Origin: an uncultured Gammaproteobacteria bacterium
GTDB taxonomy: Bacteria > Patescibacteriota > Patescibacteriia > Magasanikbacterales > UBA922
Length of the DNA stretch: 64,000 nt
Direction of reading: 5' to 3'
NCBI GenBank assembly: GCA_964597575.1
Contig: CAZQXB010000001.1
Coordinates: 842,892-906,891 of the forward strand
Shown here one piece after another: positions 1 through 23,396 of the stretch. The number at the start of each line of letters is the position of its first letter. The first letter of the stretch is position 1. Made by a program: the position numbers and the translations under genes. The notes under the pieces are model-generated. The model was not told the DNA's origin. It saw only the letters and a list, made by a program, of their open reading frames with translations, and did no database searches.

Positions 1-254
1 ACAAGAATTCCGAGAAGTACGGCGGATACTGCCGGCTGCCAAGGCCAAAAGCCCATAACGAGCGCCAGCCAAACAATAAGTGTCGTTAAAAGGGCGCAAG
101 ACGGCTTGGCTTTTAAATCCAAAATGGTAGTACGAAGAAAATTCGGAGCAAGCATGAAAGAAAACGTACACGCATAGTATAGCGCAAAAAACGCGCTAAG
201 AAAAGACAAAATAAAACACCCACCGGAGAAATCCGATGGGTGTTTTACAATCAT
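1..254 (-). CDS. Partial CDS (N-terminal about 84 aa; runs off the window) of a hydrophobic, membrane-like protein. Manual translation gives MIVKHPSDFSGGCFILSFLSAFFALYYACTF...
   Basis: Open minus-strand frame from ATG (complement of 252-254) to the window edge. Not in the ORF track because its stop lies outside the window. Low-GC host composition. Confidence 0.3.
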   Translation of the reverse strand, partial: MIVKHPSDFSGGCFILSFLSAFFALYYACTFSFMLAPNFLRTTILDLKAKPSCALLTTLIVWLALVMGFWPWQPAVSAVLLGIL

Positions 255-291
255 GAAGCGAGAAACGTATTTCTCGATTTATGATTTTGAG

Positions 292-331
292 GAGACGGCT
301 AGGAATCCTCGGGGATTTCACTAGCCGTCTC
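292..331. other. Perfect 11-bp inverted repeat (GAGACGGCTAG ... CTAGCCGTCTC) with an 18-nt loop, sitting exactly at the left low-GC/high-GC junction.
   Basis: Read directly. It lies 75 nt downstream of the stop of the minus-strand lipoprotein gene. It could be a terminator for the island operon or a junction/recombination site. Confidence 0.5.
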
Positions 332-405
332 GACAGAGGCATCTCCGCTTGGCACCTTGGTGTCTCACGACACGAGGTGCACTTGGGAGAGCTCTTGAGG
401 GAAAC

Positions 406-2412
406 CTACAGCTGCAGGTAGGCGTTGAAGCCGCTCGGGCGGTTGTTGCGCTCGTAGGTAATCCGCGTCGTCATCGTGCTGTGGAGCGTTGTGGGGACCT
501 CGGCTTCGAGGTATCCAGTCTGCTGCAGCAAATGATTTGGCGGGGTACCGTTATCGGCGAGCGCGTACCAGATGTCCGTGTTTCCGGCGTTGTAGCCGAA
601 CACGTTCACCGCACACCGCACGTTCGGCTGCAAGTTCCGGAGGGTCGCCTCGATGACGATGTTCCCTACGGAACCCCACCCGCCTGCTGGCCGGTTCACC
701 TGAACCCCTTGAGGACCCCATTGCATGATCGTGGCTCCCGTACCCGCGTTGGTACGGCACTCGACGATCATCCTGAGGTAGGTCACCTCAGCGGAGATCG
801 ATCCGGCTTCGGCCGCCGGAATTCGATAGAACGCTCGCACCGTCGTGGTCGCACTTCCCGTGCTCGTCACCACGATGATGCCGGGTCCACCAGGGGTGGT
901 ACCACCGTCGGGCGTTCCTCCGTCCCCTGCTCCTGCATCCGGGACCGATGCTGCCGCGTCGGGATTCGACGGGGCGGCGTCCGGGTTGCTCGGAGCTGCG
1001 TCGGGGAACACCGGTGCCGCATCCGGAAAGACCGGAGCGGCATCGGGGAACGTGGGTCCGGCGTCGGGGAAGACAGGCGTTGCGTCGGGGAAGACAGGCG
1101 TTGCGTCGGGGAAGACAGGCGTTGCGTCGGGGTTCACGGGCGCCGCGTCGGGATTCGACGGGGCGGCGTCCGGGTTGCTCGGAGCTGCGTCGGGATTGAC
1201 CACACCTGCGTCCGGGTTCACCACGACACCACCGTCCGGAAGCCGAACACACATGTTCGGCCGACCAGCGACGGGGATGCACGTGAGACCCGTGTTGCAG
1301 GTGAGGTTACCGTAGCAGTCGCCACCCTCGGTGCCCACCGCGGGTCCACCATCGGTCGGCGGAGCGGCATCCGGATTCGGTGCGGCATCAGGGAAGACGG
1401 TCGCGTCGGGCGCAGGACCTGCATCACCGGGAATCACCACCCCACCGTCCGGCAGCCGAACACAGATGCTCGACATGCCGATCGGAAGGCAGCTCAGCCC
1501 CATGTTGCAAGTACCGTTGCCGTAGCACGGTCCACCCTCGGTACCCGTTGGCGGCCCCGAACCGGCGTCGTTCTCCCCTGCATCGATGACGCCCGCGTCC
1601 TGTTGAGGAAGCGGCTCACAGATGTTCACCTGCCCACCCTGATCCTGACATTGGAGGTCGCGATTGCACGTGTCGTTGTCACGACACGGGCAGTTCTCGG
1701 TCCCCCATTGGCAGAAGTCGCAGAAGGTCCCGCGACAGATCAGATCCTCGCGGCAGAACCCCCCGCCTCCACAGTCACACGCGAGCGTCCCCGGAACGCA
1801 GCCCGGCGGCGGCGCCAGCGGGCCGCACGAGAACTCGGAGACGCGCTGACCGTTGCAGGAGAGCGCGACACAGAGATTCGTGATGCCACTTCCGTTCGTC
1901 GAGGTGCGAACCTCGACGATGGTTCCGGGGTTCTGGCACGAGTTGCTGCCACCGATCGGCCGATCGACACACAGCTGACGCTGGGTCGGAGCCGCCGAAC
2001 AGGTGAAGTTCACGCAGAACTTCTCCATGTCCGGAACCGTTGAGCTGCGGGTCTGCACTGACGTGGGCAGGCAGCTCGCACCGTCCATACCGGGAGTCCC
2101 CGGCTGTCCGGGCTCTCCGGGCGAACCGGGCTGACCATCCTGACCCCGCGGGACGTCCACGCAGAACGAAGATCCGGGGTTACACCCCGGGATCCCGTCG
2201 CCGAAGCAGAAGCGAACCCCTGCATCGTTCGCGACGGAGCTCGTCACGGGACATGCGGGTCCCGCCGGCCCTTGCGGACCAGTCGGACCCGTCGCGCCAG
2301 TCGGCCCGACGCCGCCCTTGAAGGGCGGGATCTCGATCGGCTGCTCATCGCAGCCGACGAGGAAAGAGGTGGAACAGAAGAAGAGACAGAACAAGAACCT
2401 CGCCATATTCAT
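406..2412 (-). CDS. Secreted lipoprotein of about 668 aa. It has a lipobox (LVGC), collagen-like G-x-x triplets (GPTGATGPTGPQGPAGP, GQPGSPGEPGQPGTPG), several Cys-rich modules and a C-terminal tandem PDAAP/PDATPVF repeat tract.
   Basis: Start chosen at MNMARF, with RBS GAGAAAGGA 8 nt upstream. Signal peptide plus Cys in LVGC. About 68% GC. The plus-strand ORF 349..2043 is an Arg-rich shadow of this gene. Confidence 0.6.
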   Translation of the reverse strand: MNMARFLFCLFFCSTSFLVGCDEQPIEIPPFKGGVGPTGATGPTGPQGPAGPACPVTSSVANDAGVRFCFGDGIPGCNPGSSFCVDVPRGQDGQPGSPGEPGQPGTPGMDGASCLPTSVQTRSSTVPDMEKFCVNFTCSAAPTQRQLCVDRPIGGSNSCQNPGTIVEVRTSTNGSGITNLCVALSCNGQRVSEFSCGPLAPPPGCVPGTLACDCGGGGFCREDLICRGTFCDFCQWGTENCPCRDNDTCNRDLQCQDQGGQVNICEPLPQQDAGVIDAGENDAGSGPPTGTEGGPCYGNGTCNMGLSCLPIGMSSICVRLPDGGVVIPGDAGPAPDATVFPDAAPNPDAAPPTDGGPAVGTEGGDCYGNLTCNTGLTCIPVAGRPNMCVRLPDGGVVVNPDAGVVNPDAAPSNPDAAPSNPDAAPVNPDATPVFPDATPVFPDATPVFPDAGPTFPDAAPVFPDAAPVFPDAAPSNPDAAPSNPDAAASVPDAGAGDGGTPDGGTTPGGPGIIVVTSTGSATTTVRAFYRIPAAEAGSISAEVTYLRMIVECRTNAGTGATIMQWGPQGVQVNRPAGGWGSVGNIVIEATLRNLQPNVRCAVNVFGYNAGNTDIWYALADNGTPPNHLLQQTGYLEAEVPTTLHSTMTTRITYERNNRPSGFNAYLQL

Positions 2413-2790
2413 GACTACAGTTCCTTTCTCCCCGTAAACCGACGGGGTTGCGGATTCGAACCAGTGGGTTAACTCGCGTGAGGGCACCATACCCCCGGTT
2501 TTTTTAGGACCAGAGGTCATGCCGCTCAAGCGGACACTGAACTCCTCTACGCGCAACGTATCGTTTTCATAAAACAACACATTGCGCGAGAGGAATTATT
2601 TTTGTATAGATTTCCCTCAATTGAAATGAACTTTTTGTATCCAATTTCTGGGATACCAGTCGGGCATATACACTCGTACGTGCACCCCTGGAATACCACA
2701 AACAGTAACTATACATTATACCACTTTTTTACACATTTGTCAATCACGTTATTCACCTCTTTTTTTGCTTATTTAAGAGAAGAAATCTGA

Positions 2791-2818
2791 GGGAGGTTGA
2801 ACACTTTTTCAACCTCCC
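2791..2818 (-). terminator. Hairpin GGGAGGTTGAA-cacTTTTT-CAACCTCCC (11-bp stem) downstream of the 2899..3879 gene. It lies in the AT-rich intergenic/promoter segment inside the high-GC island.
   Basis: Perfect stem read directly, with flanking T/A runs on both strands. Confidence 0.5.
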
Positions 2819-2898
2819 CCGCTTTTGACTTTCCCCTATCCTCCAGGGCGGCCCTCTGAAACTGGTCCAGAGAGCCGCCCGTGTAGCGCTGGGGTGCG

Positions 2899-3879
2899 CT
2901 ACGGCGTGGGAGCGATGACCCCATCCGGCTGCTTTTGCCGTGAGTAGCTGAAGTCACCCACCGTGTCGACGACGATTCCGAGAGAGAACGAGAACGCGCT
3001 CTGCTCGGGACCACCACCCGTCCACGATCGGTGGTCGGTGTCGCGAACCATGGATAGGGGGGACCATTCGATCCCCCACTTCATGAATCCGAACACCTTC
3101 CCGCCGACCTTTGCGCTGACCCCCTGGTAGTGGAACGACGGTCCGTCCCACTCCGCCTCCCCAGTGTTGAAGAGGCGCAGGTAGGAAACACCCACGTCGA
3201 GGGTCGCTTGTCGATCCCTCGACATGAGTGCCCGCCAGCCGACCCCGCCCCCGTACCCGAATGCGAAGTGAGTTCCCCGAGGGGAAGCCGCCAACGCCGA
3301 ACCGGGCATGAGGTATGCCGACAGCACGATGCTGTCGATGATCACCAAATCGAGACCGAACCGTGCTCCGACGGCGACATCTCCGTTGTAGAAGACGACC
3401 GCCGACGGACCGGCACTGATCTCGAAAAGTGCGGGCTCTGTCCTGCGCTCTTTCTCGACCGCGGTGAGGCGCTGTTCGTGGTCGTCGATCCGATCCATGG
3501 CCAAGTCGGTCTGCTCGGTGAGGGCTGCGGTCGCAGTCGCCACCCGCTCGAGCGTGGCCGTGGCGGTCGAAACCGTCCCGACCATCTGCGAGAACAAGTC
3601 TTCCAGATACGTGATCTCGTTGCCGAGGATCACGTCGGACGACTCGCCCGCCTGCTCCTGGCAGAGATCACGGGCCGCCTGGCTCGTCTTCTTCATCTCG
3701 GCGCACTTGCGCCGAGCCTTGCAGTGCTTCACCCAGTCGTTGCCACGCCGCGAGAAGTTCTCCTCGCACGTCTGCTGGTCCAGGGTCCGCATCGTCGGAG
3801 CCGGGGTAGCCGCCGGCTGCGCGAGCGCAACCAGAGGGAGAAAGGTCAGAGCGAACAAACACACCAACAACTTACGCAT
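2899..3879 (-). CDS. Secreted hypothetical protein. It has a signal peptide (MRKLLVCLFALTFLPLVALAQP), a coiled-coil region, and a Gly/aromatic-rich C-terminal domain that looks beta-rich.
   Basis: RBS GAAAGTGAGGA 5 nt upstream of the ATG. The gene sits 7 nt downstream of the stop of the 3886..4851 gene, which suggests an operon. High GC. Confidence 0.55.
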   Translation of the reverse strand: MRKLLVCLFALTFLPLVALAQPAATPAPTMRTLDQQTCEENFSRRGNDWVKHCKARRKCAEMKKTSQAARDLCQEQAGESSDVILGNEITYLEDLFSQMVGTVSTATATLERVATATAALTEQTDLAMDRIDDHEQRLTAVEKERRTEPALFEISAGPSAVVFYNGDVAVGARFGLDLVIIDSIVLSAYLMPGSALAASPRGTHFAFGYGGGVGWRALMSRDRQATLDVGVSYLRLFNTGEAEWDGPSFHYQGVSAKVGGKVFGFMKWGIEWSPLSMVRDTDHRSWTGGGPEQSAFSFSLGIVVDTVGDFSYSRQKQPDGVIAPTP

Positions 3880-3885
3880 ACGTCC

Positions 3886-4851
3886 TCACTTTCCGGGCTT
3901 CTTGACGCCCGAGGCTTCGACTTCGTCGATGCACTTACTACGGAGTACTCCGATGGCCGTCTTGTCGGGGATCGACAGAGGAAGCTTCCGTTCGGCCATG
4001 AGTCGAGTATAGTCACCCGACTGCTTGATGGTCATAGCCACCTCGGGCGGAACACCGCGCTCGATGGCCCGCTTGATGTAAGCAGCCAAGTCACAGCATC
4101 CAGCCGCGGCCGTGCCCTTGCAGATGTCCTTCCAAGTCAGAGTACGCCCTACGGGAACCGCCGGAAACTCCGGAGGCTTCGGCTTGTCTGCCTTGGGCTT
4201 CTTGTCCTCGCGAACCGTCGACGCCGGGGCTGCCTGCACCTTCTTCGGATTGCACTTCTCCTTGTCCTGAGCGATGACCGCGTTGAAGAACGCGATCTGC
4301 CGAGCGATCTCCGCGATACGCGCCGGGTCAGCCTTCACACTCGAGCGAGTCTTCGCCCGATTGAGATAGGTCAACCCATCGCGTGCGTCGCGGACCTGAT
4401 CGGCTTGGAGAGCCTTCGAACCCTTGTCCGTGCCGCATGGCACGACCTTGAGCTCGAGCTCCTCGCAACCAATCAGGTAGGGAACTGAATCAGCACACCA
4501 CCCCGGCGCGACCGTCGCGGTCTTGCCCGGGTGAAGCACGTGCTTCAGCCCCTTCAGGGTCTTGTTCGGATCGGCCTGGCACACATAGGCCAGCTCCTCG
4601 ATCTCGCTGTACCCCCTGTCCGGGTGCCACCAGGCGGTGGACGTGTAGGTCGCCGCGACCGTCGCGGTATTGACCTTACCCACCGTACCCTGGAACGCCG
4701 CCGGGTTGACGCTGATCGTCTGCCCACACTCCGGGAGGAGGAGGGCGACGATGAAGCCGGCGATGAAGCCGAGGAGCGTCCGCAGCTTGTTGCCGCGGGG
4801 CTTCTCGTTGCCGGTCGAAGTGACCGGCGCATCCATGTTCTCTTTTTTCAT
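3886..4851 (-). CDS. Hypothetical membrane-anchored protein. It has an N-terminal TM segment (LLGFIAGFIVALLLP), a Lys/Pro-rich linker and a Cys-containing C-terminal domain.
   Basis: Start chosen at MKKENMDAP, with RBS GGAAAAGGA 8 nt upstream. The ORF-track start at 4968 is probably too far upstream. Confidence 0.5.
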   Translation of the reverse strand: MKKENMDAPVTSTGNEKPRGNKLRTLLGFIAGFIVALLLPECGQTISVNPAAFQGTVGKVNTATVAATYTSTAWWHPDRGYSEIEELAYVCQADPNKTLKGLKHVLHPGKTATVAPGWCADSVPYLIGCEELELKVVPCGTDKGSKALQADQVRDARDGLTYLNRAKTRSSVKADPARIAEIARQIAFFNAVIAQDKEKCNPKKVQAAPASTVREDKKPKADKPKPPEFPAVPVGRTLTWKDICKGTAAAGCCDLAAYIKRAIERGVPPEVAMTIKQSGDYTRLMAERKLPLSIPDKTAIGVLRSKCIDEVEASGVKKPGK

Positions 4852-5180
4852 GGACACATCCTTTTCCCCCGACGCTGTCGGGAATTTCCGGTGGCACGAG
4901 CCACCTTGGCTCATGCCGACATATACATCGGCTGGTTTGTTTTCAGTTTCCTTCCGTGCACCGTGCACGAGGATCGTTCAAATGCTTTTTTCTCAAAGCA
5001 TCTCGACGATCCTCGCCAACGAACACAAAAAGAAACCAAATTTTATAGTATTTCAAAGTGTAATGAACAAATGGGGTTTAGCCCCATTCACCAGACTACA
5101 TGTACTCCTTTCAATGTAATCTCGTCAATGGGACCCGCGGAAGAGAATTGCTTCCGCGGTAGATGTGAAGATGAAGAAAA

Positions 5181-6794
5181 CTACTTGCTGTCTCCGATGG
5201 CCTGGCGCTCGGTGCGGCATCGCTGCTGGAGCGATTTAGGCACCGAGTTGCAACATGCGACCGCGCCGACCACGTCACCAGTTCGCTGCTTGTTCAAGCA
5301 CTGGTTGACCGGATCCGACACTGCCGGAATGGCGACGATCTCGCCTGCCGCATTCTCCATCGACGTCGGCAGGTTGCTCTTCGTGATCATGAAGACCGCG
5401 AATCCAGCACCCGCCGCTACCAGTGCGAGCGCGACGAAGATAAAGTGGAACAAGGTCCACCCCTTCCGCTTCGGCGGCGGACGCCTCGCCCGAGCCTTGA
5501 CCTTCGGCTTGCGCGTCAGATCGTCGTCATCAGATGCCATCTCTCGAAGCAAGTAAGCGTCGCCGAGCTCCGTCGGCTGTTGGTCGGGCACTGCGCCAGA
5601 CCCAGTAGACGGGAGCGGAGCGGTAGTTGAGGGAGAAATAGCAGGAGGAGGCTGAGGAGCGGGCGGCGGGGACTTGAACTCCCAGCCGGTCCGGTCAGCG
5701 AGCCTGAGCAAAAAGACGGACTCGCGATGACCTTTCTTCAGGCTCGACAAGTGGTCGAGCCAGAGGAATCTCTCCCCCTCATCGAGGGGAAAATCCTTCA
5801 GCTTTTCAGGGGCCACAGGCACAAGGGGGAAGAACGCGCTCGGTCGTTCGGCAATTTCTCCGAAGGGACCGAACTCGATGAGGTACTCCTTCGCTCCGAA
5901 AGGAGAGAGGTGATCGTATTCCTCGGGGCTAACGACAAGCCCCATCACCTTCTGCTCTTTCCAGTATCGGAGGCGATACTTCGCCTTCCCGATCACGACC
6001 GTCATCTTCCCCGATCCCTTTTCGAAGGGACGGAGGACACGCGTCGTGCTGTCGGCCGGATCTGCGGTGGGCGCCGAAGCGACCGCCACAGCCTGAGGCC
6101 GAGCCGGCAGAGTCGGTCGAACCGACTGCACCGGTGGACCAGGCATTCCGACCGTGTAATCAACACTCGGGCGGGCAGGCATCGCCGGAACCGTCCTTGC
6201 ACGCGGTGCCGGAGCAGGAACCGGAATCGCCACTCGGGGTGGCGCGACCACGGTCTCTCCGTGAGCCGTAACCTGCTCTTCTGCCATGGCGAGACTCTCA
6301 TCCATCCGCGCGAGGACAGCATCGATGGGAGCATCTTCTCCCAGGTCGGCCCCGACCGTGCGGGCGGTACCGATCCCTATCACGCCAGTGTTGGCCGTGA
6401 TCGGCTCGCTATCCTCATCACCCCTGTCGTCGACTTCGTCCAGGATCTGGTGGGGGTCAATGTGCACCCCCGAAGGCTCGACCCCGGCCTCTTCGAGACC
6501 GATGACGCGCCCAGAGGCGCGGCCCACGATGACGACCCCGTCGCCAGCGACCAACCGCTCATCAGCAGCGATCTGCTGGACGACCAGCGCCGCGACCGTC
6601 ACACGACGATCGAGGCCCGGAATGGGGGCTCCGTCCTCGGTACGCCCCACCTCATCCGCCCAGTTGGTGGACGGCGGAGGCGTGGGCTTGGGCGCCTCCG
6701 TACGAGCGGGTGGCGGGGGGTCGCTCTCGACACCGCGGCTGTTCCGCTCGAGAAAAGACTCCATGAGATCACCGTGATCAAGATCGAACATCAT
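5181..6794 (-). CDS. Hypothetical protein with Pro-rich linkers and one TM helix (GWTLFHFIFVALALVAAGAGFAVFMI). The N-terminal region is weakly FHA-like.
   Basis: RBS GAGAGGGA upstream of ATGATG. The gene start coincides with the right end of the high-GC block. The plus-strand ORF 5727..6956 is an Arg-rich shadow. Confidence 0.5.
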   Translation of the reverse strand: MMFDLDHGDLMESFLERNSRGVESDPPPPARTEAPKPTPPPSTNWADEVGRTEDGAPIPGLDRRVTVAALVVQQIAADERLVAGDGVVIVGRASGRVIGLEEAGVEPSGVHIDPHQILDEVDDRGDEDSEPITANTGVIGIGTARTVGADLGEDAPIDAVLARMDESLAMAEEQVTAHGETVVAPPRVAIPVPAPAPRARTVPAMPARPSVDYTVGMPGPPVQSVRPTLPARPQAVAVASAPTADPADSTTRVLRPFEKGSGKMTVVIGKAKYRLRYWKEQKVMGLVVSPEEYDHLSPFGAKEYLIEFGPFGEIAERPSAFFPLVPVAPEKLKDFPLDEGERFLWLDHLSSLKKGHRESVFLLRLADRTGWEFKSPPPAPQPPPAISPSTTAPLPSTGSGAVPDQQPTELGDAYLLREMASDDDDLTRKPKVKARARRPPPKRKGWTLFHFIFVALALVAAGAGFAVFMITKSNLPTSMENAAGEIVAIPAVSDPVNQCLNKQRTGDVVGAVACCNSVPKSLQQRCRTERQAIGDSK

Positions 6795-7131
6795 TCCCTC
6801 TCATCCTGCTGCATAAGGCGCAGCAATTCCTCGCCAAATCTCTTTGGCGCTTTTCTTAAAAATGTTTTCTTCAAACTTCAGTTGGATAGATCACGATTTG
6901 GAAGAGTTATTTGCGCATTGTGGGCACAAGCAACCCATAGCAAATCGACGGGTTAGAATAGCATAATTTAGCGCTTTTGTCAAGAGAAAGACCCTGTGTA
7001 TAAACGAATATTAAAAAAGGCTCTACTCAGCCACTATTTTAGAGCATTTCTTCTCTTTTTTTCCTGTATAAAAAACACCTGATTTTTCTTCAGGTATTTT
7101 TTACTTTCCTCTATTTCCTCTCCCCAACCCT

Positions 7132-7746
7132 TTATCGATACCTTCGCACGACCACCGCAGCACTGAGAAGTGCCCCGAGGAAGAAGCCAACGGCGATATT
7201 GACCGGGATATTTGGCCGAACCGGAATGTTTGTTGGTACGGGTTGATTAATGATTTTTAAACTCACATCTCCGCCCACGTAGTCGGTTACTTTATTCACC
7301 AGCGCATCTGCTACCGCACCGGATAAAGCCACTGCCCCTTCTTTCGTTTCAGAAAATGCACTCACATTCAACACCCCAGTACCATACACAACCGAGGCAC
7401 CGACCGATCGTTCCCAACGCTTGCGGCGCTCACGCTCGTTTCGAGCGCCCGCGAAATAATCTGCGGGGACTTCTTTTGGCGCATCCGTCATAACTTTTTT
7501 ATAAAAATCATCACTGGCCATCACCTGCACAATATTTTCCCCTACTCGCTCGGCCGACTTAGCGGCGGTGTACGGGTCAATGCCGTACCGCGATTTAGAA
7601 ACAATAAGCACCTGTGCGTCGGCGCGATACTCTAGTGGAAAAGCCAAACTCACCACCCCAGCCACGAAGGCCACAAAAAAACCGCTCACGAAAAGAATAC
7701 GCCACCGCTTTTTTAAAATATGAATGGGATCGTTCAGAAGATACAT
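7132..7746 (-). CDS. Wzz/CpsC-like polysaccharide chain-length determinant (polysaccharide co-polymerase), with N- and C-terminal TM helices.
   Basis: Topology and the C-terminal GFFLGALLSAAVVVRRYR segment match the PCP family. A hairpin terminator (ACCTGA-ttttctt-TCAGGT) lies downstream at about 7075-7100. Confidence 0.45.
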   Translation of the reverse strand: MYLLNDPIHILKKRWRILFVSGFFVAFVAGVVSLAFPLEYRADAQVLIVSKSRYGIDPYTAAKSAERVGENIVQVMASDDFYKKVMTDAPKEVPADYFAGARNERERRKRWERSVGASVVYGTGVLNVSAFSETKEGAVALSGAVADALVNKVTDYVGGDVSLKIINQPVPTNIPVRPNIPVNIAVGFFLGALLSAAVVVRRYR

Positions 7747-7778: not shown

Positions 7779-8828
7779 TTATTTCAAACGAATGGTAATC
7801 CGCTCGCCTTTTCTTTGCACCGTTATAAATAACTCTGTAGAGAGAAGGCTCACTTTCTCAAATGTTTCAAATGAAAACGGCACGTTCCCGAGTGTCATAA
7901 TAATATCGTTTGGCATAATACCAAGTGCGCGCGCTTTCGGCGTTACTTCTGTCACGAGAAAACCTTGTCGTGAAATAATCGTTTCGGCCTCAGGTATCGC
8001 CGATACAAACACTCCCTTAAACCCAAAATCGGGGTAAGTTATTTTTCCACTTTGAAGTACTTGCCGCATGTGCGATTCAACAAGCCACGATGGATAGAGC
8101 ACATTATTTTTGGCCACAAGCCCGAGCACATCTCCGCGGCGATCGACGACAAACGAACCAAAAGGAACTCCTGGCAACACCTGCGGCAAAAGTTCTGGTC
8201 GATCAAACGTGTATGTTTTTTCCGGCACAATAAATTCTCTTGCAGGAATAATCGTCGCATTCTCTATTTTATTTCCTGGGGCAATCGCCCACACGGTTCC
8301 ACCTTCAGCCTCCTCTGAACCAAACGCTGCCACACGAAATCCTTGGCCGACTAAATGCACATACACCAAATCGGTGTAGGGGTCTTCCACAATGGTGTCG
8401 ATCGTTGTCGAAACACTTTGACTATCAACCGCGAGAAGCATTTCTGAACGGGTTTTCAGCGTATCTTGAACAAGTACGGCCCAGCCATCCGAAGAAAGAA
8501 GCATCGCCTCCCCCACCCGTGCAGTAAGCGGAAAAGCACCTTCGCTGACAGTTTTCGTTTTGTCGTACAAAGTTACTGTGCGGGCTCGCGTTTGGTTGAG
8601 CACATAGGGTTCAAGTGTGTCCGGTGTGGTGTCGCGCCGCAAAAGAATTCGATCAGAAAGGCCGGCTGCGCCAATATCGGGAAGAACCCAAACAGCGGCA
8701 GCTAACGCCGAGGCAACGCCAGCGAGAACTGAAAGAAACAACATCAGTGTGACCCACGGCAGTGACTGGCGAACATAGTACGCCGGAATAGAACACGAAC
8801 GTGGAGGGAGATGCGGAGGATGGTTCAT
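7779..8828 (-). CDS. TM-anchored trypsin-like protease/PDZ-domain protein. It is HtrA-like but divergent and may be catalytically degenerate.
   Basis: The architecture is an N-terminal TM, a beta-rich protease-like core and a C-terminal PDZ-like segment. The start was moved to MNHPPHL to avoid overlapping the upstream gene. Confidence 0.4.
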   Translation of the reverse strand: MNHPPHLPPRSCSIPAYYVRQSLPWVTLMLFLSVLAGVASALAAAVWVLPDIGAAGLSDRILLRRDTTPDTLEPYVLNQTRARTVTLYDKTKTVSEGAFPLTARVGEAMLLSSDGWAVLVQDTLKTRSEMLLAVDSQSVSTTIDTIVEDPYTDLVYVHLVGQGFRVAAFGSEEAEGGTVWAIAPGNKIENATIIPAREFIVPEKTYTFDRPELLPQVLPGVPFGSFVVDRRGDVLGLVAKNNVLYPSWLVESHMRQVLQSGKITYPDFGFKGVFVSAIPEAETIISRQGFLVTEVTPKARALGIMPNDIIMTLGNVPFSFETFEKVSLLSTELFITVQRKGERITIRLK

Positions 8829-10493: not shown

Positions 10494-10888
10494 GGGGATG
10501 ATTGGTCTCGCTAGACGGACCAGTTATGCATATGTGCATGTCGAGGTTGCTTAACTCCTCGTAAAAAAATAAGCAATCATACGTGCAAACGTATTCCAGG
10601 GCGTGAAGAACGCAATTGCTCGCGCATTTGCCGTTCCTTCATTTGCCCCTGTTCTCGCCTAATACCGAGAACCATCGCTCCCGAGATACTCGATATCGGA
10701 TTCGCGGTGTAAACCCTTTCGAGCGTAGATGTTTGGTCGCTGGCCGACACTAAGCATTGAAGTTCTTTCGGCACAGCTTTGGTGGTTCTGTCGCCTCAAC
10801 ACACCGAAGCGCTTCTAGAGGCGGCAAAGCATGTTGACCATATCCATAACCCGCTCTACACCCGAGTTCGATTCTCGGCATCTCCACA
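10494..10888 (+). ncRNA. ssrA: Transfer-messenger RNA (ssrA).
   Basis: The 5' GGGGATG pairs with the 3' CATCTCC, including the G3-U wobble alanine identity element. The T-arm is CCGAGTTCGATTCTCGG followed by CCA-like ACA. There is a tag-ORF-like stretch ending GCCTAATA. Position is immediately 3' of smpB. Length is about 395 nt. Confidence 0.8.
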
Positions 10889-10897
10889 ATTATAAAG

Positions 10898-10919
10898 CCA
10901 CCCTCTTGGGTGGTTTTAT
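10898..10919 (+). terminator. Rho-independent terminator of ssrA (CCACCC-tctt-GGGTGG + TTTT).
   Basis: Read directly. Confidence 0.7.
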
Positions 10920-10935
10920 AATTGATTGAGTTTTG

Positions 10936-11048
10936 GCCGAGAATCGAACTGGGGAGAGTTTGGGAACCGGAAGGTTCCCACTTTTGCTGGGGGAAGGTTC
11001 TGAAGGGGTGGAAACCTCTTCCCAAGAGGAGCGACAGCGACGAGTGAG
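10936..11048 (+). repeat. Copy 1 of a structured repeat of about 115 nt. The core is TTGGGGGAAGGTT ... GAAGGGGTGGAAACC.CTTCCC ... AGGAG ... GCGACGAGTGAG. Its first 17 nt are the reverse complement of the tmRNA T-arm.
   Basis: Three-way alignment with the copies at 28797..28917 and 61073..61190. Hairpins are maintained by compensatory changes. Confidence 0.7.
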
Positions 11049-11134
11049 CATTCCTCGGCATAGCCTACAGAACTAAAAGAATCACATAAACATGCTATGA
11101 TTCTGCTAGTCATTGTCCAAATAAATATCTTAAT

Positions 11135-16237: not shown

Positions 16238-16311
16238 GGGCTGGTAGTTCAACTGGTTAGAGCACTGCCCTGTCACGGCAGAAGTTGCGGGTTCGAACCC
16301 CGTCCAGCCCG
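16238..16311 (+). tRNA. tRNA-Asp (GTC).
   Basis: Cloverleaf folded by hand: acceptor GGGCTGG/CCAGCCC, anticodon loop CTGTCAC, T-arm GCGGGTTCGAACCCCGT, discriminator G. Confidence 0.85.
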
Positions 16312-17931
16312 CACAACGGAACGAACAGCGTCAGCATACGCTGTTTTGTTTTTGGTTGAGCCATTTTTTACAGTTATAGTGGCCGCAACCTCTTCTTTTA
16401 GGTCAATCAAAAACTGATATTGCTTTTCGGCTGAGTTGACGACTAATTTATCCTTAAGTGCGGGGTTGTAGTACAAAAATTGGAATACCTCTCTTTTCTT
16501 CTCTAAAGAGAGATTTGGATACTTATTTCTAAGCTCACAAGCAAAATCAAAATAAGCCACACACTTATCATACCAATTCAGTCTTTCCTGCTTTAACTCT
16601 ACCCGTCTTTTCAGGAGTTGGTTTCTCTCATCCACAATCCCCTTTTTTCTTCTTAAGAATTCCTCATTATCTAAAAGTAATCCATCTGTGTTATCAGGAG
16701 AAATCTTAAGTGTGACCAGATTGTCCAACTTAATCTCGCATTCCTTAATTTTTCTCTCCTGCTGCTCATCAATCTTGGTAGACACACCAACCTCCTCCTC
16801 ATTTGCCTTATTAAGCTCTTCGATTGCTAAACGCATAAAATCCTCATCTATCGCGAGCCTGCCAACCTCAACTAACACCTGCTCCTCAACTTTTTCCTCA
16901 CGGATATACGATTTACCTACACATTTCATGCACCGATAATACCTATGCCCCTTGGCCATCATGCCTGAAATAGTACCCCCGCAATCGCCGCAACTCATGA
17001 AATTACTATATGGGTAAAACGTAATCGTAGAAACAGGATGACTATTATTTTTTAAAATCTTTTGATTCTGTACAAAAACTTCCCGAGAAATAATCGGATC
17101 ATGACGATTCTCCGCTGGAAGATCCTCTGGTTCAATAATTTCACCTTTCCAACGAATAGCGCCGTAATAAAAGGGATTCTTTAGAATTCGTTCAATAGTA
17201 GCACCGCTTACCATTTTCTTTGATCTTGTAGCGGTCAACCCTAAATCAAAAGAAGCTCTCCGTAAAGCATTCATACTGTATTGACCCGTTGCGTGTAGCT
17301 CACAAGTTTTTTTTAAAATTTCAGAAATAAAAGGATCTGGCTCAATACGTTTAAGGCGTCTCCCTAGTTTCTGCAAAGCCTCCTGTTTCTCAAAAGAGTA
17401 TTGTTTGCCAGAAATTTTCCCCTCCCTGTCTATATTAAGATACCCAATAGGTGCAAAATCAGGATATTCCCCTTTCCTTAATTTTGCCTGTATATCTCGC
17501 TTAACGAAATCACTAGTGTCATCTGAACTCTTTTTAGCCATGGCAAAATGTATCTGCATCATGAACTTGTCATCTGTAGTATTCGTATAGAGCTTCTCAG
17601 GCGTCCTAATCCCCTTTATAAGCCCCTGATCCATCATATAGATGATTTGCCCGCCATCGAGGCTATTACGTGCTAAGCGCGTCAAATGATAGGTCAGAAT
17701 ACAGTTTGCTTTCCCTGACCGGATAAGCTCTAGCAACCTACCAAATTCTTCACGGCCTTCTTTATACGCACTTTTAGACTCAGCCAAAAGCTCCAACACG
17801 GTAAGCTTGTCCCGTAAGGCAATATCGCCCATTTCTTTCTTTTGTGAATCAATCGAAAGAACTTGTCGATCTTCGGAATCGGAAGACTTTCTACAGTAGG
17901 TAACATACAAGAACTCTGATGTCTTATTCAT
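16273..17931 (-). CDS. Large serine recombinase (integrase).
   Basis: N-terminal resolvase-type catalytic region (YCRKSSDSEDRQVLSIDSQ), recombinase domain, Cys-x2-Cys zinc ribbon (CGDCGG ... YYRCMKC) and coiled coil. The last 13 codons overlap tRNA-Asp. Confidence 0.8.
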   Translation of the reverse strand: MNKTSEFLYVTYCRKSSDSEDRQVLSIDSQKKEMGDIALRDKLTVLELLAESKSAYKEGREEFGRLLELIRSGKANCILTYHLTRLARNSLDGGQIIYMMDQGLIKGIRTPEKLYTNTTDDKFMMQIHFAMAKKSSDDTSDFVKRDIQAKLRKGEYPDFAPIGYLNIDREGKISGKQYSFEKQEALQKLGRRLKRIEPDPFISEILKKTCELHATGQYSMNALRRASFDLGLTATRSKKMVSGATIERILKNPFYYGAIRWKGEIIEPEDLPAENRHDPIISREVFVQNQKILKNNSHPVSTITFYPYSNFMSCGDCGGTISGMMAKGHRYYRCMKCVGKSYIREEKVEEQVLVEVGRLAIDEDFMRLAIEELNKANEEEVGVSTKIDEQQERKIKECEIKLDNLVTLKISPDNTDGLLLDNEEFLRRKKGIVDERNQLLKRRVELKQERLNWYDKCVAYFDFACELRNKYPNLSLEKKREVFQFLYYNPALKDKLVVNSAEKQYQFLIDLKEEVAATITVKNGSTKNKTAYADAVRSVVRAGRGSNPQLLP

Positions 17932-17943
17932 ACAGACAACATC

Positions 17944-18087
17944 TTACCGTTGGTTGCCATAATAAGCAATTTTAACTATCTTAATAAGACGAGAGAATGC
18001 TTCAAAGGCCTCCTGGTGTTCCAGGTGCACACCATACTTCCTTTCGTACAGTGCCATAAATTTTTGGAGGCCTTCCTCAGAGATCAT
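17944..18087 (-). CDS. Small 47-aa ORF (MISEEGLQKFMALYERKYGVHLEHQEAFEAFSRLIKIVKIAYYGNQR) immediately upstream of the recombinase. Candidate regulator or recombination directionality factor.
   Basis: Manual translation. Below the ORF-track size cutoff. Same strand as the recombinase and 12 nt from its start. Confidence 0.25.
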   Translation of the reverse strand: MISEEGLQKFMALYERKYGVHLEHQEAFEAFSRLIKIVKIAYYGNQR

Positions 18088-18194
18088 AGTAAATTACGAA
18101 ACTCTTACTTAATCGTTCTTCTGTAGTTCTACTAAAATAATGGAATTCTTATACGACCTATAAAGTTCCAAATTACGTAACCTGTACACAACAT

Positions 18195-19571
18195 TTAATA
18201 TTTGACTTGTAACCCCATGTCATCTAATTCTTTTTGGAGAGATCCCTCTCCTTTCTTTGACTCCTTAGAAATGTTCATAACATTCATATGTTCAAAATCA
18301 AAACCATACTTTTTCGCTAATTTTTCTAAATTCTCGTTTAACCCATTATCTTCTAGAACAAAACCATTCATCTTTTTTACGACCTTTAGATGAAGTTTAT
18401 TTCTTACAATTTCACCAATTTTTCGAGGGCTTAACACTGTTTCATCAGAAGAAAATAAGTGATTATAGCCCTCAGCAACACGCTTCATTGTAATTCCACG
18501 CTCATCCAGACCAACTCGGATATTAATAATTGTTTCTAATACCTGACCCTCAAAACTCATTCCACGATCATTCATTAACTCTTTACCGTATCCTCGAATC
18601 ATCTCCATGAGTTCTAGTCTTAAATTCTGATCATTAATAATACTCAGTAATGGCGCTATTATCTGATTAAGTCGTGACTCAACAGAGTGATCATAAACCG
18701 AAAGATCGATTGCTTTTTTTCCATAATTCCTTAGTCGCCACATGAGGCACTTATTTCGTATAACCGTAGCTTCCTGGTCGAAACTATCATTTAGGTTAAT
18801 CGGAACATCTCTTCTGGTTAATTTCCCATCCATACGCTCTACTAAAAATCGGCTTTCTAGAGCTTTATCCTCAAACTTATTGCGTGTCGCAACGATCTTG
18901 GGGCAAAACACATCAAATGATGCGATATCATTGGGGTTCTTTCTATCCTTGCAACGTAATATTGCTAAACCGGTCTGAAAACCATTATTAAGAATTTTTA
19001 TAATATCTACATTGGTATCACTAAAACGTAAATCAGCCTCATCTAAAATGAGGGTTCCTTTATACAAATCTATAAGACGAAAAATTGGAGCTGAAGTAGT
19101 CGCCCCCATTGTAAACATAGGTTTATAGCATACAGAACCAACTACCTTTAAAAACCGACTTTTACCGCTACCATAGTCGCCAATAGCGCGAAGATAGGGT
19201 AATTCTTTAAAAGAGTCATATGTCCAAGTCAATAGAACATAATAAGGGGCTATTTTTTCAAAAAACGAACTAATTTCTAAATACTTATGTATAAAATTCG
19301 CAATCTCATCAATAAGGTCTTTATCATTACCATATTCTGAGGGCTCTGTAGGGAATAAAATGACCTTATTCCTCACAAGATCGGCATCTGGAGGAAACGG
19401 GAAGATAACCCCTCCATTTGTTTCTACAAAATCCTTAATAACAACATCTCCATTACAATAACCAACAAATTTTGTGACTTGAGTATTGGGATCATAAATC
19501 ATCTCAAATATACCTTCATCGGTCTTAACCAATGAGGATTTTTTAGTTTTTTCTTCTAAATTCATATTCAT
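18195..19571 (-). CDS. P-loop NTPase, putative phage/plasmid replication protein (primase-helicase / VirE-like).
   Basis: Walker A GDYGSGKS and Walker B LILDEADL. Located on the integrative element. Confidence 0.45.
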   Translation of the reverse strand: MNMNLEEKTKKSSLVKTDEGIFEMIYDPNTQVTKFVGYCNGDVVIKDFVETNGGVIFPFPPDADLVRNKVILFPTEPSEYGNDKDLIDEIANFIHKYLEISSFFEKIAPYYVLLTWTYDSFKELPYLRAIGDYGSGKSRFLKVVGSVCYKPMFTMGATTSAPIFRLIDLYKGTLILDEADLRFSDTNVDIIKILNNGFQTGLAILRCKDRKNPNDIASFDVFCPKIVATRNKFEDKALESRFLVERMDGKLTRRDVPINLNDSFDQEATVIRNKCLMWRLRNYGKKAIDLSVYDHSVESRLNQIIAPLLSIINDQNLRLELMEMIRGYGKELMNDRGMSFEGQVLETIINIRVGLDERGITMKRVAEGYNHLFSSDETVLSPRKIGEIVRNKLHLKVVKKMNGFVLEDNGLNENLEKLAKKYGFDFEHMNVMNISKESKKGEGSLQKELDDMGLQVKY

Positions 19572-19596
19572 TGCATTAAAAGTGTGTAAACCGAAA

Positions 19597-19848
19597 TTAG
19601 CGACGTTTAAAAATTGCCTGAGCAGTACGAATACCTTCTATCATGTCATGGGCATACACCTTTAACTTTTTTGAAAGTAGCTGGGTTAATATGCGTTTAC
19701 ATTTCCCTTGATCCTCAAAACGAAAAAAAACGGTTCCTCGCTCGGCCACTTCATATCCATCAACCACACAACCAGCACTTAGTAAAACGTAGATTTCAAA
19801 ACGATCTTTAGTTACATAAAATGGTACGTAATCTATTTTCATATACAT
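19597..19848 (-). CDS. Hypothetical small protein (83 aa).
   Basis: ORF on the element upstream of the NTPase gene. A perfect 22-nt palindrome (19908-19929) follows the upstream gene. Confidence 0.3.
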   Translation of the reverse strand: MYMKIDYVPFYVTKDRFEIYVLLSAGCVVDGYEVAERGTVFFRFEDQGKCKRILTQLLSKKLKVYAHDMIEGIRTAQAIFKRR

Positions 19849-19937
19849 TAAATTAAAAAAATAAACTGCTTATGATCGCAGTTTATCAAATGGTATTTAT
19901 TGTTATACCCTCGTCGAATGCAGCTGCATTCGACGTA

Positions 19938-20645
19938 TCACCTAAACTTAGCCTTGACTCTTCCTAAATTAGACTTTACGCTATTTGGCGTAACATTTTT
20001 ATAGCCCCATTCTTTCAAGATAGCAGCAATAACCTGATTTTTATACCTGTATTTTTTACTTTTATCTTTTAATAATTGAGGGAGAAAATTGATTGAACAT
20101 TCATTAAGTCTAACACACGCCATGACTAAATTTTTATCTTTGAAAGGGGAGATTCTTTTTAACGGGCTATACACTGCACACCGTTTTATTTCAGATTTTA
20201 TATTCTTCCAATTACTTTTAATATACTGCAAAACATCATCCCTAGATGCCATTTCAGGAATTATTAGTTTTACATATGACTGGCCGTTTTCAATCACTCC
20301 ATCTCTGGAAGGCAATTCAATCAAAAAACCAACACTTGATACTTTTTCTTTAATTTTATCAAAATAATCTCCGAGTATTATGTAATTTTTAAGCAAACTT
20401 AAAAAATTTGGAGTCTGTGGTATTTTGTATTTTTTTAGAATTTCTCTTTCTTTAAGTTGAAATTCAGATAAACTGATAGTAGTTTTCTCGAGTGAAGATA
20501 GATATCTTTTGTAATGATCTTGACTGGAAAATCCCCCTATCGGGATATTAAAAATTAAACGAAATAAGTGTATATCCTCCAAAAACTCCTTATTGAAAAT
20601 GAGAGAGTAGAACAGTTCTTTAGCCTTATTAGTCTCGTTTTTCAT
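19938..20645 (-). CDS. Hypothetical protein (235 aa).
   Basis: AT-rich ORF on the element. Confidence 0.35.
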   Translation of the reverse strand: MKNETNKAKELFYSLIFNKEFLEDIHLFRLIFNIPIGGFSSQDHYKRYLSSLEKTTISLSEFQLKEREILKKYKIPQTPNFLSLLKNYIILGDYFDKIKEKVSSVGFLIELPSRDGVIENGQSYVKLIIPEMASRDDVLQYIKSNWKNIKSEIKRCAVYSPLKRISPFKDKNLVMACVRLNECSINFLPQLLKDKSKKYRYKNQVIAAILKEWGYKNVTPNSVKSNLGRVKAKFR

Positions 20646-20926
20646 AACATATTCATATAATTTTATAAGCTAAATATACACCTTTTTCTTATTTTGATAT
20701 ATCGATAAGACTTGAAGAATAACTCTGGATAAGGTAATCTAAATTCAACAATTCAAGCCTAAACTCAATAGTCCCCCTATTGGGCATGGCACATAAACTA
20801 CACAAATATAGAGATGGCTATGCCGTCTTTGGTATTATTTGTGTAGTCAGTAGTCGAAAGGCTACTGGGCCCCTAACGGGGTCGCCAAAGCAACGGATAG
20901 CCTTTTTTGTTATCTATTTTAGAAAT

Positions 20927-21613
20927 ATGGCAAAATACGAATCTATTGAGGATCTAAAAATAAAGTGGTGGTACCGACTTTTTCAGGTAATACTTACTTG
21001 TTTCTATCTAGCATCTTTAGCGTATGGAATTGGCTTAGTAGTGATTGAAATGGTGCAACCAAATTATGTACTTGATAGACAAAATTCAACCGTTACCTGT
21101 AAATATGGGACAAAAAAATCTTATTCCTTTTTTGAAGGAAATGTTTACGAACCAGTCTTCCCTTCTGACATTCAAAGATTATGTAATGGGAATGGTAACC
21201 AAGAGATAGTAGACCGAGTAAAGGAAATGCGTGACGCAAAATTTGATGATAAGAAAATTTTATCTTTATTCTACGAAGCAAGTGAGCAAGACTGGAGGGA
21301 TTATGTAGACGAAGCAGGAAAAAGTAGTAGCCCCACAGAAATAGTAAATAGTTTTGTTTTAGATAGTCTTATTTTAAGTGAAATTGATGCACAAAAAGTC
21401 CTAAATGACCCCAGAGAAATATACGTATCCGTACATACAGTATTTAAGGCTGATAAAAGTCCTTGGGATTTAATGTGGGCAAAAATTGGATACTCTGTAT
21501 TAACTATTCTTGGTATAAGCACTGTATTTGAAATTATTAGAAGCGTTTTTAATTACATCATTGCAGGGAAATACTTTCCTCTCAAATTTATGAATATTTT
21601 TAATAAGAAATAA
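20927..21613 (+). CDS. Hypothetical membrane protein with two TM segments.
   Basis: Start moved to MAKYES. Hydrophobic helices (VILTCFYLASLAYGIGLVVI; YSVLTILGISTVF). Confidence 0.35.
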   Translation: MAKYESIEDLKIKWWYRLFQVILTCFYLASLAYGIGLVVIEMVQPNYVLDRQNSTVTCKYGTKKSYSFFEGNVYEPVFPSDIQRLCNGNGNQEIVDRVKEMRDAKFDDKKILSLFYEASEQDWRDYVDEAGKSSSPTEIVNSFVLDSLILSEIDAQKVLNDPREIYVSVHTVFKADKSPWDLMWAKIGYSVLTILGISTVFEIIRSVFNYIIAGKYFPLKFMNIFNKK

Positions 21614-21616
21614 TGT

Positions 21617-22846: not shown

Positions 22847-22995
22847 TACACCCTTCTTTTAGAATGGTGAGTAAACAGGTAAATGTAGGAAGTAAAAATT
22901 TCAAAAAATAGGAATTACGAACGGAAAATTTCCCTAAACGATTCAAATATATTGCTAATTTAAGCCATTTTTTGATATTTAAATATCTTTTCTAC

Positions 22996-23391: not shown

Positions 23392-23396
23392 CTGCT

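Follow-up and report, generated by a model that had tools for sequence, protein, structure and literature searches.

Structured repeat units within duplicated tRNA and tmRNA gene ends in Patescibacteria: candidate miniature integrating elements

A stretch of 64,000 nucleotides from a bacterium of the Patescibacteria (here called the window) contains three copies of a structured repeat associated with the 3' ends of genes for transfer RNA (tRNA) and transfer-messenger RNA (tmRNA, gene ssrA). Four more copies occur in two related species, at loci L085 and L088, giving seven copies from three species. Each unit comprises ~190-250 bp and has no open reading frame (ORF). The best-supported reading, which we put forward tentatively, is that the units represent a new miniature variant of the integrative elements that target tRNA genes. 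With the same reserve we propose that this integrase-less element inserts serially into the T-loop, and that a replacement 3' end and a terminator arrive with it. In an initial annotation of the window the repeat had been taken for a functional RNA; the observation is real, and more structured than described there, and the interpretation as an RNA gene is only partly supported. The organism is placed in the Patescibacteria by SmpB, which is encoded next to ssrA and whose named homologues derive from Magasanikbacteria and allies.

Layout of the units and their host genes

Alignment confirmed that the three copies, which the initial annotation had located at 10936-11048, 28797-28917 and 61073-61190, are homologous. 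A covariance model built from these copies agrees with the alignment and scored them at 107-131 bits when run over the 64 kb with filters off. The matches were 10943-11048 (+) with 118.9 bits, 28805-28917 (+) with 107.1 bits and 61073-61178 (-) with 130.5 bits, and no further match above 11 bits was obtained in the rest of the window. The motifs GAAGGGGTGGAAACC and AGCGACGAGTGAG are identical in all three copies, and copies 2 and 3 have an identical run of ~40 nt in common. Since one public assembly contig stops inside copy 2, within this run, the repeat may break short-read assemblies.

Four tRNA-type genes (tmRNA, tRNA-Asp, tRNA-Val and tRNA-Ile) were found in the window with ARAGORN and Rfam. 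Units 1 and 3 belong to the following genes.

10494-10887 (+): tmRNA gene ssrA, host of unit 1 (ARAGORN; Rfam RF00023, 109.9 bits), with T-arm CCGAGTTCGATTCTCGG and 3' end CATCTCCACA
61239-61313 (-): tRNA-Ile, host of unit 3 (ARAGORN, Rfam)
61322-61396 (-): tRNA-Val (ARAGORN, Rfam)
61239-61396 (-): operon of tRNA-Val and tRNA-Ile (ARAGORN, Rfam)
61448-61420 (-): promoter-like site (promoter scan, 11/12 matches)

In copies 1 and 3 the parts follow each other in a fixed order, i.e. gene end, palindromic terminator, short T/G-rich spacer, inverted copy of the gene end, stems P1 and P2, joining region, stem P3, tail, and finally a direct copy of the 3' end of the gene. The terminators are palindromes of 17-20 bp that begin directly at the gene end, as judged from a terminator scan and DNA folding. 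The inverted T-arm copy extends over the whole last ~24 nt of the gene in the best-preserved units, and its end forms the 5' strand of P1, which pairs with a short direct copy of GGTTCGA or of one of its variants as the 3' strand. The joining region between P2 and P3 is G-rich, P3 has the loop TGGAAA, and the purine-rich tail ends with GCGACGAGTGAG. The direct second copy begins in the 3' part of the T-loop and includes the acceptor strand. Three stacked helices with 34-37 pairs are predicted when tRNA end, terminator and inverted copy are folded as a single strand, and the z-scores of this stacked hairpin in DNA folding were -9 and -11 against shuffles.

According to the initial annotation each copy immediately follows the terminator of a tRNA-type gene and starts with the reverse complement of the T-arm of that gene. 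Both statements hold for copy 1, which opens with GCCGAGAATCGAACT (15/15 to the tmRNA T-arm), and for copy 3, which opens with GATGGAGTCGAACC (14/14 to tRNA-Ile, and 19/23 across the whole 3' end). They fail for copy 2 as it stands today, where the terminator is preceded by a tRNA-Asp pseudogene and the inverted T-arm is reduced to a generic TTCGAACC. That annotation does not mention the repeated 3' end that follows the core in direct orientation, a second terminator, or tandem units in a relative. Unit 1 consists of the following parts.

10887-10924 (+): terminator A, a 17-bp palindrome from the last tmRNA bases (terminator scan, sequence)
10936-10954 (+): inverted tmRNA T-arm (GCCGAGAATCGAACTGGGG), its 3' part being the 5' strand of P1 (reverse-complement match 15/15; cognate gene has the top score)
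10944-11048 (+): core (covariance model 118.9 bits, folds, pair counts)
10944-10950 with 10957-10963 (+): P1
10962-10968 with 10973-10979 (+): P2
10980-11001 (+): joining region
11002-11008 with 11015-11021 (+): P3, loop TGGAAA
11022-11048 (+): purine-rich tail, ending GCGACGAGTGAG
11050-11069 (+): direct, degenerate second tmRNA 3' end, ATTCCTCGGCATAGCCTACA compared with ATTCTCGGCATCTCCACA (fuzzy match, alignment)

The direct copy in unit 1 differs from the gene by two substitutions and two insertions, and one other, weaker match was present in the 4.2 kb searched. It is followed by a vestigial second terminator, AAAAGAATCA...TGATTCT, recognized by comparison with terminator B of L085 and L088. 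The parts of unit 3 are listed below.

61196-61240 (-): terminator A, palindrome of ~19-20 bp, ACGAATACAAAAACAGACGC...GCGTCTGTTTTTGTATTCGT (sequence, DNA fold)
61171-61193 (-): inverted tRNA-Ile 3' end (GTTGGGATTGATGGAGTCGAACC), last 14 nt exact (19/23 to the reverse complement; cognate gene has the top score)
61073-61177 (-): core (covariance model 130.5 bits, folds)
61177-61171 with 61163-61157 (-): P1
61158-61152 with 61147-61141 (-): P2
61120-61112 with 61105-61097 (-): P3
61096-61073 (-): tail
61072-61057 (-): direct second tRNA-Ile 3' end, ATTCCGATCCACGCCC compared with ACTCC-ATCCACGCCC (alignment)

The direct copy of unit 3 overlaps the stop codon of a convergent gene with SH3 and CAP domains, and the second terminator is absent after copy 3.

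Related loci and distribution of the family

Four further copies, situated at the corresponding loci downstream of ssrA and tRNA-Asp, were reached via SmpB homologues (68-69% identical) in two related Patescibacteria.

L085 (also L086; SmpB 69%), 4564-4667: tmRNA unit, 95 bits
L085 (SmpB 69%), 7857-7945: tRNA-Asp unit A, a variant, 23 bits
L085 (SmpB 69%), 8075-8180: tRNA-Asp unit B, 107 bits
L088 (SmpB 68%), 6048-6127: tmRNA unit, divergent, 16 bits

Downstream of ssrA the direct copy of the tmRNA end is exact over 13-17 nt in both L085 (GCATCTCCACAAA) and L088 (TCTCGGCATCTCCACAA), and a terminator B follows directly. Terminator B is conserved between L085 and L088 (AAAAAATAATCGGCCA..TGGCCG..TTTTT); in the window a vestige of it is present. 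The two tRNA-Asp units of L085 are arranged in tandem, each with its own terminator and each ending in a copy of CCCCG.TCCAGCCC, in the order gene, terminator A, unit A, tRNA-end copy, terminator B, unit B, tRNA-end copy. Terminator B is thus found after the displaced end at ssrA of both L085 and L088 and at unit A, while unit B runs off the contig. The inverted copy in unit B covers the whole 3' end of the tRNA (GGCTGG-CGGGGTGAGAACC compared with GGCTGGACGGGGCTCGAACC). L088 has hairpins at the positions of P2 and P3 with quite different sequences (GGGGAAAC/GTTTCCCC and TTGAAACC/GGTTTCAA), and its tail is recognizable (GAGCGAAGC...GAGGTGAG).

Outside these genomes the family was not encountered. 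Exact-pattern scans with the core gave no matches in IMG/VR and none in the GTDB representative genomes, and a six-frame peptide query for spurious ORFs over other copies gave no matches. None of 80 SmpB-linked loci from GTDB genomes carries the family, which is therefore clade-restricted. In L003, the closest of these 80 (SmpB 62% identical), ssrA abuts infC and tRNA-Asp is followed by a terminator only. Searches of Rfam at gathering and at relaxed thresholds with copies 1 and 3 and the L085 units gave nothing relevant, only hairpin matches far below threshold, and the initial annotation was right that this is not a known family of non-coding RNA. The palindromic terminators gave sub-threshold matches to miRNA precursors in the relaxed searches. 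Literature searches on repeats downstream of tRNA genes, on T-loop sites with miniature elements and on serine recombinases of Patescibacteria gave no description of the element.

Two groups of similar sequences were rejected. A single match in a JGI metagenome (L001) has ~30 nt in common with the core, different flanks and no adjacent tRNA, and was judged unrelated. A scan of IMG/VR with the tail pattern gave nine loci that are AT-rich, contain GCGA-rich motifs, lack a tRNA and score at most 21 bits, i.e. a low-complexity coincidence. One IMG/VR region of this kind is L097 11950-12390 (also L093 and L096), AT-rich intergenic DNA with GCGA-rich motifs such as GCGAGCGAAGCGAGC. One GCGA-rich motif from IMG/VR matches the tail of the element at 23/25 positions with no tRNA nearby, and this likeness is probably a coincidence.

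At the tRNA-Val/tRNA-Ile locus the module is absent from L099, L102 and L104 (KH protein 82-83% identical), where other duplications of tRNA ends are found; the contigs L089, L105 and L106 are too short to reach this locus. In L099 (10526-10640; KH protein 82% identical) the 3' half of tRNA-Ile is duplicated directly between tRNA-Ile and tRNA-Val, and the duplicate is split right after GGTTCAATTC in the T-loop by an unrelated hairpin-rich insert of 72 nt, with neither an inverted copy nor a terminator. In L102 (10618-10710) a pseudo 3' end lies behind tRNA-Ile (GGATGGTT, a 19-nt hairpin, CACGCCA), followed by a terminator and a GC-rich insert of ~2.4 kb before the signal peptidase gene.

Proposed integration into the T-loop and its alternatives

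If a host gene is written a|b, with the cut at about T-loop nucleotides 58-60, the order at the loci is a, b', terminator A, inverted 3' end, P1 loop, short direct copy a', P2, joining region, P3, tail, b, with a' absent in L088. The segment b' completes a working gene, ARAGORN calling the host genes intact, and we take b to be the former 3' end, displaced downstream. A directly repeated 3' end, a gene completed by the insert and provided with a fresh terminator, and tandem stacking together constitute the signature of site-specific integration at the T-loop and 3' end. The attachment site for tRNA-targeting mobile DNA, relic or active, that the initial annotation had named among several options is now favored by this evidence.

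The T-loop is a classic site of integrative elements that target tRNA and tmRNA genes, and ssrA is a favored target. The segment from the T-loop to the 3' end is reportedly the P4-type sublocation that Williams distinguished for such elements in 2002. The units resemble these elements in that the last 14-20 nt of the gene are directly repeated around the insert, a replacement 3' end is supplied, the old end is displaced, tandem arrays occur and ssrA is among the targets. They differ in their small size and in having neither integrase nor cargo; moreover, they carry an inverted target and a three-hairpin module at the crossover point, and one module serves three target genes.

The module from P2 to the tail is common to loci and species, while the tRNA-specific segments match the local gene. 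In six of the seven units the flanks (inverted on the 5' side, direct on the 3' side) score clearly higher against the same gene type than against other types, and equally in six of seven the local gene is at the top or within 4 points of the best, the decayed copy 2 being the exception. For L088 ssrA and L085 tRNA-Asp unit B the top flank score belongs to the same gene in the sister species. An ungapped screen of 59 tRNA/tmRNA loci flagged members of the family only. Two tails, those of the tRNA-Ile unit and of L085 tRNA-Asp unit B, have ...GAGTGAG(A)ATTC, a remnant of a tmRNA-type T-loop, as their last bases ahead of the local T-stem strand. The occurrence of this remnant at genes other than ssrA suggests that the family began at ssrA and may have spread from there through crossover at the T-loop edge. 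The presence of units varies among relatives: they are absent at ssrA and tRNA-Asp of L003 and at tRNA-Val/tRNA-Ile of L099, L102 and L104. The tRNA genes of the clade are active integration sites, with serine-recombinase islands at tRNA-Asp in the window and at tRNA-Ile in L104.

The same arrangement could have arisen locally, by rearrangement, without any mobility of its own. In this scenario the palindromic terminator would be the site of fold-back or template switching, which would produce direct, inverted and direct copies of the tRNA 3' end; the product would be kept as an extended bidirectional terminator or insulator, and the common core would spread between loci by gene conversion. 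The direct-inverted-direct T-arm copies are indeed centered on a palindrome, the arms still match the local gene as quasipalindrome correction predicts, P2 followed by CACTTTTGC scores as terminator-like, and the run common to copies 2 and 3, in which the public contig ends, also fits. However, a homologous core of ~85 nt at three unrelated genes needs transfer, and there is little homology between the loci to drive conversion. Nor are the tandem units of L085 a simple duplication, as their terminators are unrelated and their P2 and P3 differ, and the tmRNA-type ATTC remnant, which both the tRNA-Ile unit and unit B contain, suggests that units have moved from gene to gene. We consider this explanation improbable.

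Integration into the T-loop would proceed as follows. The unit would enter by site-specific recombination in the T-loop and supply a replacement 3' end and terminator, leaving the essential gene intact, and it would be mobilized in trans by a recombinase encoded elsewhere. A small circle that integrates via a folded site, its inverted arm pairing with a' and b', would give the observed order of parts. The least secure step, suggested by the inverted target copy and by the one-sided wobble pairs of the hairpins, would be the folding of one strand into a duplex that reproduces the target site, from which the conserved module would branch at the point of crossover.

Folded sites of this type have precedents. 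In attP(+) of the CTX phage and in attC of integrons, inverted arms on one strand fold into a duplex that imitates the target; once integration has taken place, the inverted arm remains intact beside one of the junctions. The order predicted by such a mechanism (a, b', interior, inverted arm, loop, a', b) fits the units save for the extra module at a'|b; in predicted folds the inverted copy pairs both with the tRNA end and with the split direct copy, and the wobbles are strand-specific. In contrast to these systems the target is a tRNA T-arm and not dif or attI, and the unit is far smaller than a phage or a cassette. No recombinase gene of the XerCD or IntI type was found in the window.

Dependence on a recombinase encoded elsewhere would also be shared with the cis-mobilizable elements (CIMEs) of Streptococcus thermophilus, which are kilobases long, bounded by att sites and derived from identifiable parent integrative and conjugative elements. 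Like CIMEs the units are non-autonomous and have attL- and attR-like flanks, but they are ten-fold smaller, and it is the CIMEs that have identifiable parents. With miniature inverted-repeat transposable elements (MITEs) and the palindromic elements of the Rickettsia type they have in common that they are small, structured, non-coding and multi-copy, but the copies are not dispersed. No common terminal inverted repeats were found, and instead of a short target duplication 14-20 nt of the tRNA are duplicated. The option of a MITE with tRNA-derived termini, considered in the initial annotation, fails, as the termini vary by locus and copy the local gene.

Several points weigh against integration. 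No recombinase is linked to the units, and Pfam scans of 40 ORFs in the window gave the island serine recombinase only; the junctions of the island, moreover, differ from those of the units. Presence and absence were seen between species only; neither an empty site nor an excised circle nor polymorphism within a species was observed. At ssrA the three species appear to have orthologous units, as their terminators A and B are related in form, with no indication that these units moved recently. Integration as proposed does not explain how a unit would gain the matching 3' end of a new tRNA, and ordinary double-strand recombination at attP does not require an inverted copy. Template switching at the terminator palindrome could have both made and homogenized the inverted copy, and high conservation with covarying stems in a compact genome fits a functional RNA equally well. 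The copies number only seven, from three species.

The location of the copies bears on another mobile alternative, in which the P2-to-tail module alone is a miniature transposon of the IS200/IS605 type, i.e. a palindrome-associated mover of single-stranded DNA that inserts 3' of TTCGA and survives only in non-functional duplicates of tRNA ends. All seven copies lie inside such duplicates and none elsewhere in the 64 kb and ~650 kb of related loci, whereas a 5-nt target would scatter them. The module does have hairpins near both ends, a fold on one strand, no common terminal inverted repeats and no short target duplication, it lies exactly between GGTTCGA (or variants) and the remaining pseudo-T-arm, and both L088 hairpins contain GAAAC/GTTTC. 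Yet the pentamer on the left flank varies (TTCGA, TTTGG, TTTGA), scans of the window gave no gene for TnpA or TnpB, and the inverted copy and the replacement 3' end are left unexplained. This explanation appears very improbable.

Folding and conservation are the evidence on which an RNA function would be based. In the model alignment of the seven copies 90.7% of the cells are paired. Pairs changed on both sides were found for 4/5 pairs in P2, 1/7 in P1 and 0/9 in P3, and the covariation score of 0.252, compared with 0.143 for shuffled alignments, was above all slid controls, with the reservation that only seven sequences were aligned. The second hairpin (P2) described in the initial annotation shows compensatory changes, and P3 has the shifting G-U wobble noted there, its position in copy 1 differing from that in copies 2 and 3. 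Wobbles on the tRNA-sense strand amount to 15 G-T against 3 A-C, a one-sidedness which identifies this strand as the folding strand and disfavors the tRNA mimic on the opposite strand that had been suggested. A tRNA-like fold on the opposite strand was rejected because it has A-C mismatches and because two of the three copies fold less well there, and so was a conserved small ORF after the GAGGAG motif, as the downstream reading frames differ between copies. One-sided folding fits RNA and single-stranded DNA equally. The earlier conclusion of a functional RNA "rather than a decaying repeat" went too far, since covariation among three copies cannot separate an RNA from folded single-stranded DNA or an active mobile element.

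Between the window and L085 the cores of the orthologous ssrA units are 83% identical. The tRNA-Ile unit of the window and tRNA-Asp unit B of L085 are 88% identical in the core and 94% in its 3' half. The corresponding values between species are 79% for the tmRNA gene, 72-75% for smpB DNA and 67% for terminator A plus spacer. As the core is better conserved than tmRNA and smpB, the module is either constrained or recently exchanged and not a decaying scar.

A functional RNA on the tRNA-sense strand, free-standing or carried on a trailer, could account for these findings. The joining region, P3 and the tail would then form a protein-binding scaffold, and the variable 5' arm, by its complementarity to T-arm and 3' end, would act on the neighboring tRNA or on a read-through precursor, for example as a long duplex for RNase III or as a guide for a processing or modification factor. 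The conservation of the core relative to tmRNA, the covariation of P2, the shifting G-U of P3 and the wobble asymmetry towards the tRNA-sense strand all speak for such an RNA, as do the L088 hairpins kept at the same positions despite different sequences. The inverted arm also tracks changes in the tmRNA T-loop (AATCGAA, ATTCGAA and CTTGAA compared with TTCGATT, TTCGAAT and TTCAAAT), and orthologous loci retain their units in a genome where long non-coding stretches are rare. On the other hand, a strong terminator of 17-20 bp separates the tRNA from the element and no promoter-like site was found in the spacer, P3 lacks two-sided change, and the overall covariation among seven sequences is modest. 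The direct second 3' end, the second terminator and the tandem tRNA-Asp units are left unexplained, the closing stem formed by the two flanking copies is decayed in L088, and the helix of the inverted arm imitates the double-stranded gene and not the tRNA fold. We regard such an RNA as unlikely, though it stays in contention, and an RNA function may coexist with mobility.

A bolder version of the integration reading, which we consider a long shot, makes the unit a minimal retargetable integrating element. A scaffold of ~60-85 nt (joining region, P3 and tail, with P2) with arms that copy both T-arm strands would, as folded single-stranded DNA or as RNA, present a recombinase to the T-loop or guide it there, target choice residing in the nucleic acid and not in the protein. 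Such an element would be a tRNA-directed counterpart, in bacteria of the candidate phyla radiation, of bridge-RNA or CTX-type integration. As with IS110 bridge RNAs and the guide RNAs of TnpB and IscB, a structured scaffold is combined with segments that match both strands of the target and change with the target gene. Unlike them, the units have no transposon body and no Rfam match, and no DEDD recombinase, TnpB or IscB is encoded nearby.

If integration is correct, the units would be among the smallest site-specific integrating units known, would keep an essential tRNA or tmRNA gene working through the replacement 3' end and terminator that they carry, and would show how the tRNA genes of streamlined Patescibacteria genomes gather layers of foreign DNA. 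Since arms matched to the target are joined to a conserved scaffold, one may ask how target specificity is established and altered, a question that the three target genes make testable. The pseudo-tRNA ends left by the units can confuse the annotation of island boundaries. If the units are RNA genes instead, they would form a new class of RNA associated with the 3' ends of tRNA and tmRNA, in a lineage whose RNA biology is little known.

Copy 2, the tRNA-Asp island and neighboring genes

No live tRNA-type gene was found directly before copy 2 with ARAGORN or Rfam. The live tRNA-Asp lies 12.4 kb upstream, across a low-GC island.

16238-16312 (+): live tRNA-Asp, left edge of the serine-recombinase island (ARAGORN, Rfam; orthologous locus in L085)
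16273-28671 (no strand): low-GC island, 31-39% GC, right boundary approximate (composition, Pfam, ORF list, pseudogene alignment)
16273-17931 (-): large serine recombinase, 552 amino acids (Pfam Resolvase, Recombinase, Zn_ribbon_recom)
about 28672-28745 (+): decayed, AT-enriched tRNA-Asp pseudogene (~tRNA positions 9-74), putative former host of unit 2 (local alignment)
28743-28788 (+): terminator of unit 2, 20-bp palindrome (terminator scan)
28797-28917 (+): unit 2 (covariance model 107.1 bits)
28797-28812 (+): decayed inverted T-arm
28807-28812 with 28818-28823 (+): P1
28823-28830 with 28840-28847 (+): P2, 9-nt loop
28869-28877 with 28884-28892 (+): P3
28893-28917 (+): tail

The local alignment score of the pseudogene was 27, compared with a shuffle mean of 17.2 (standard deviation 2.9), and was reached by 4/500 shuffles; the anticodon loop is still recognizable (CCTTGTAAC compared with CCCTGTCAC). 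P2 of copy 2, with its 9-nt loop, resembles that of L085 tRNA-Asp unit A most. We read copy 2 as a unit belonging to tRNA-Asp, at a locus that would originally have consisted of tRNA-Asp, terminator and unit, and the orthologous tRNA-Asp locus of L085 supports this origin. The island would later have brought a replacement tRNA-Asp, after which the old gene decayed.

Antisense to tRNA-Asp, the recombinase ORF of the island extends across the terminator and the 3' half of the gene. L104 carries a homologous large serine recombinase (5622-7238, -) at tRNA-Ile (5603-5679), with 25% identity over the full length (E = 7e-41). Both ORFs run antisense through the terminator and most of the tRNA gene and have similar ...GRG tails derived from the tRNA complement, and both islands seem to carry a replacement tRNA, into which the 3' end of the recombinase gene of the island extends. 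The island serine recombinase is a poor candidate for the mobilizing enzyme of the units: the far end of the island is a nearly full-length tRNA-Asp pseudogene with no T-loop junction, and the module is absent from the island ends.

Islands of this kind offer a further explanation, namely that the units are inert remnants of large islands whose interior was deleted, leaving the end next to attR. Direct repeats of tRNA 3' ends flank each unit, the genes downstream of the units are variable and the tRNA genes of the clade do carry islands. But the core is better conserved between species than tmRNA and smpB, independent deletions would not give seven units alike in compact size and layout, and the hairpins appear to be maintained by compensatory change. 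We give this explanation hardly any credence.

Within the island, Rfam detected a LOOT RNA (RF03000) at 20756-20883 (+), with 78.6 bits compared with a gathering score of 46.4; it is directly upstream of or overlaps the ORF at 20780-21613. Copy 2 is followed by a GC-rich stretch of ~320 nt (28918-29240) with no convincing gene, which contains a perfect hairpin, GTACACAC TTTT GTGTGTAC, and beside it a possible decayed copy of the tRNA-Asp end (GTACAGCCCC).

Genes with SH3 domains adjoin copy 2 (29239-30486, +) and copy 3 (59837-61057, +), the second also having a CAP domain. The SH3/CAP gene lies between the tRNA-Ile unit and the signal peptidase gene. This position is empty in L099, where the peptidase gene comes directly after the tRNAs, and is taken by other inserted DNA in L102; the SH3/CAP gene may be inserted cargo.

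The tag of the window tmRNA is short according to ARAGORN (ARAFAVPSFAPVLA), and those of the relatives are longer with the same ending (ANVLSSVKRALANAFAPSFAPVLA); a miscall of the resume codon of the window tmRNA is possible. Positions 1-7000 have a GC content of 56-67%, compared with 45-50% over most of the window, and contain long ORFs overlapping on both strands for which Pfam gave a weak collagen-repeat match only. Foreign DNA is one possible reading of this region, a repetitive gene for a surface protein another. An ORF of 3844 amino acids (43445-54979, -) adjoins a gene for a 699-amino-acid protein with T4SS-pilin and Big_5 domains (54819-56918, -), a pair that is also present in L099 and L102; bacteria of the candidate phyla radiation typically have giant surface proteins of this sort.

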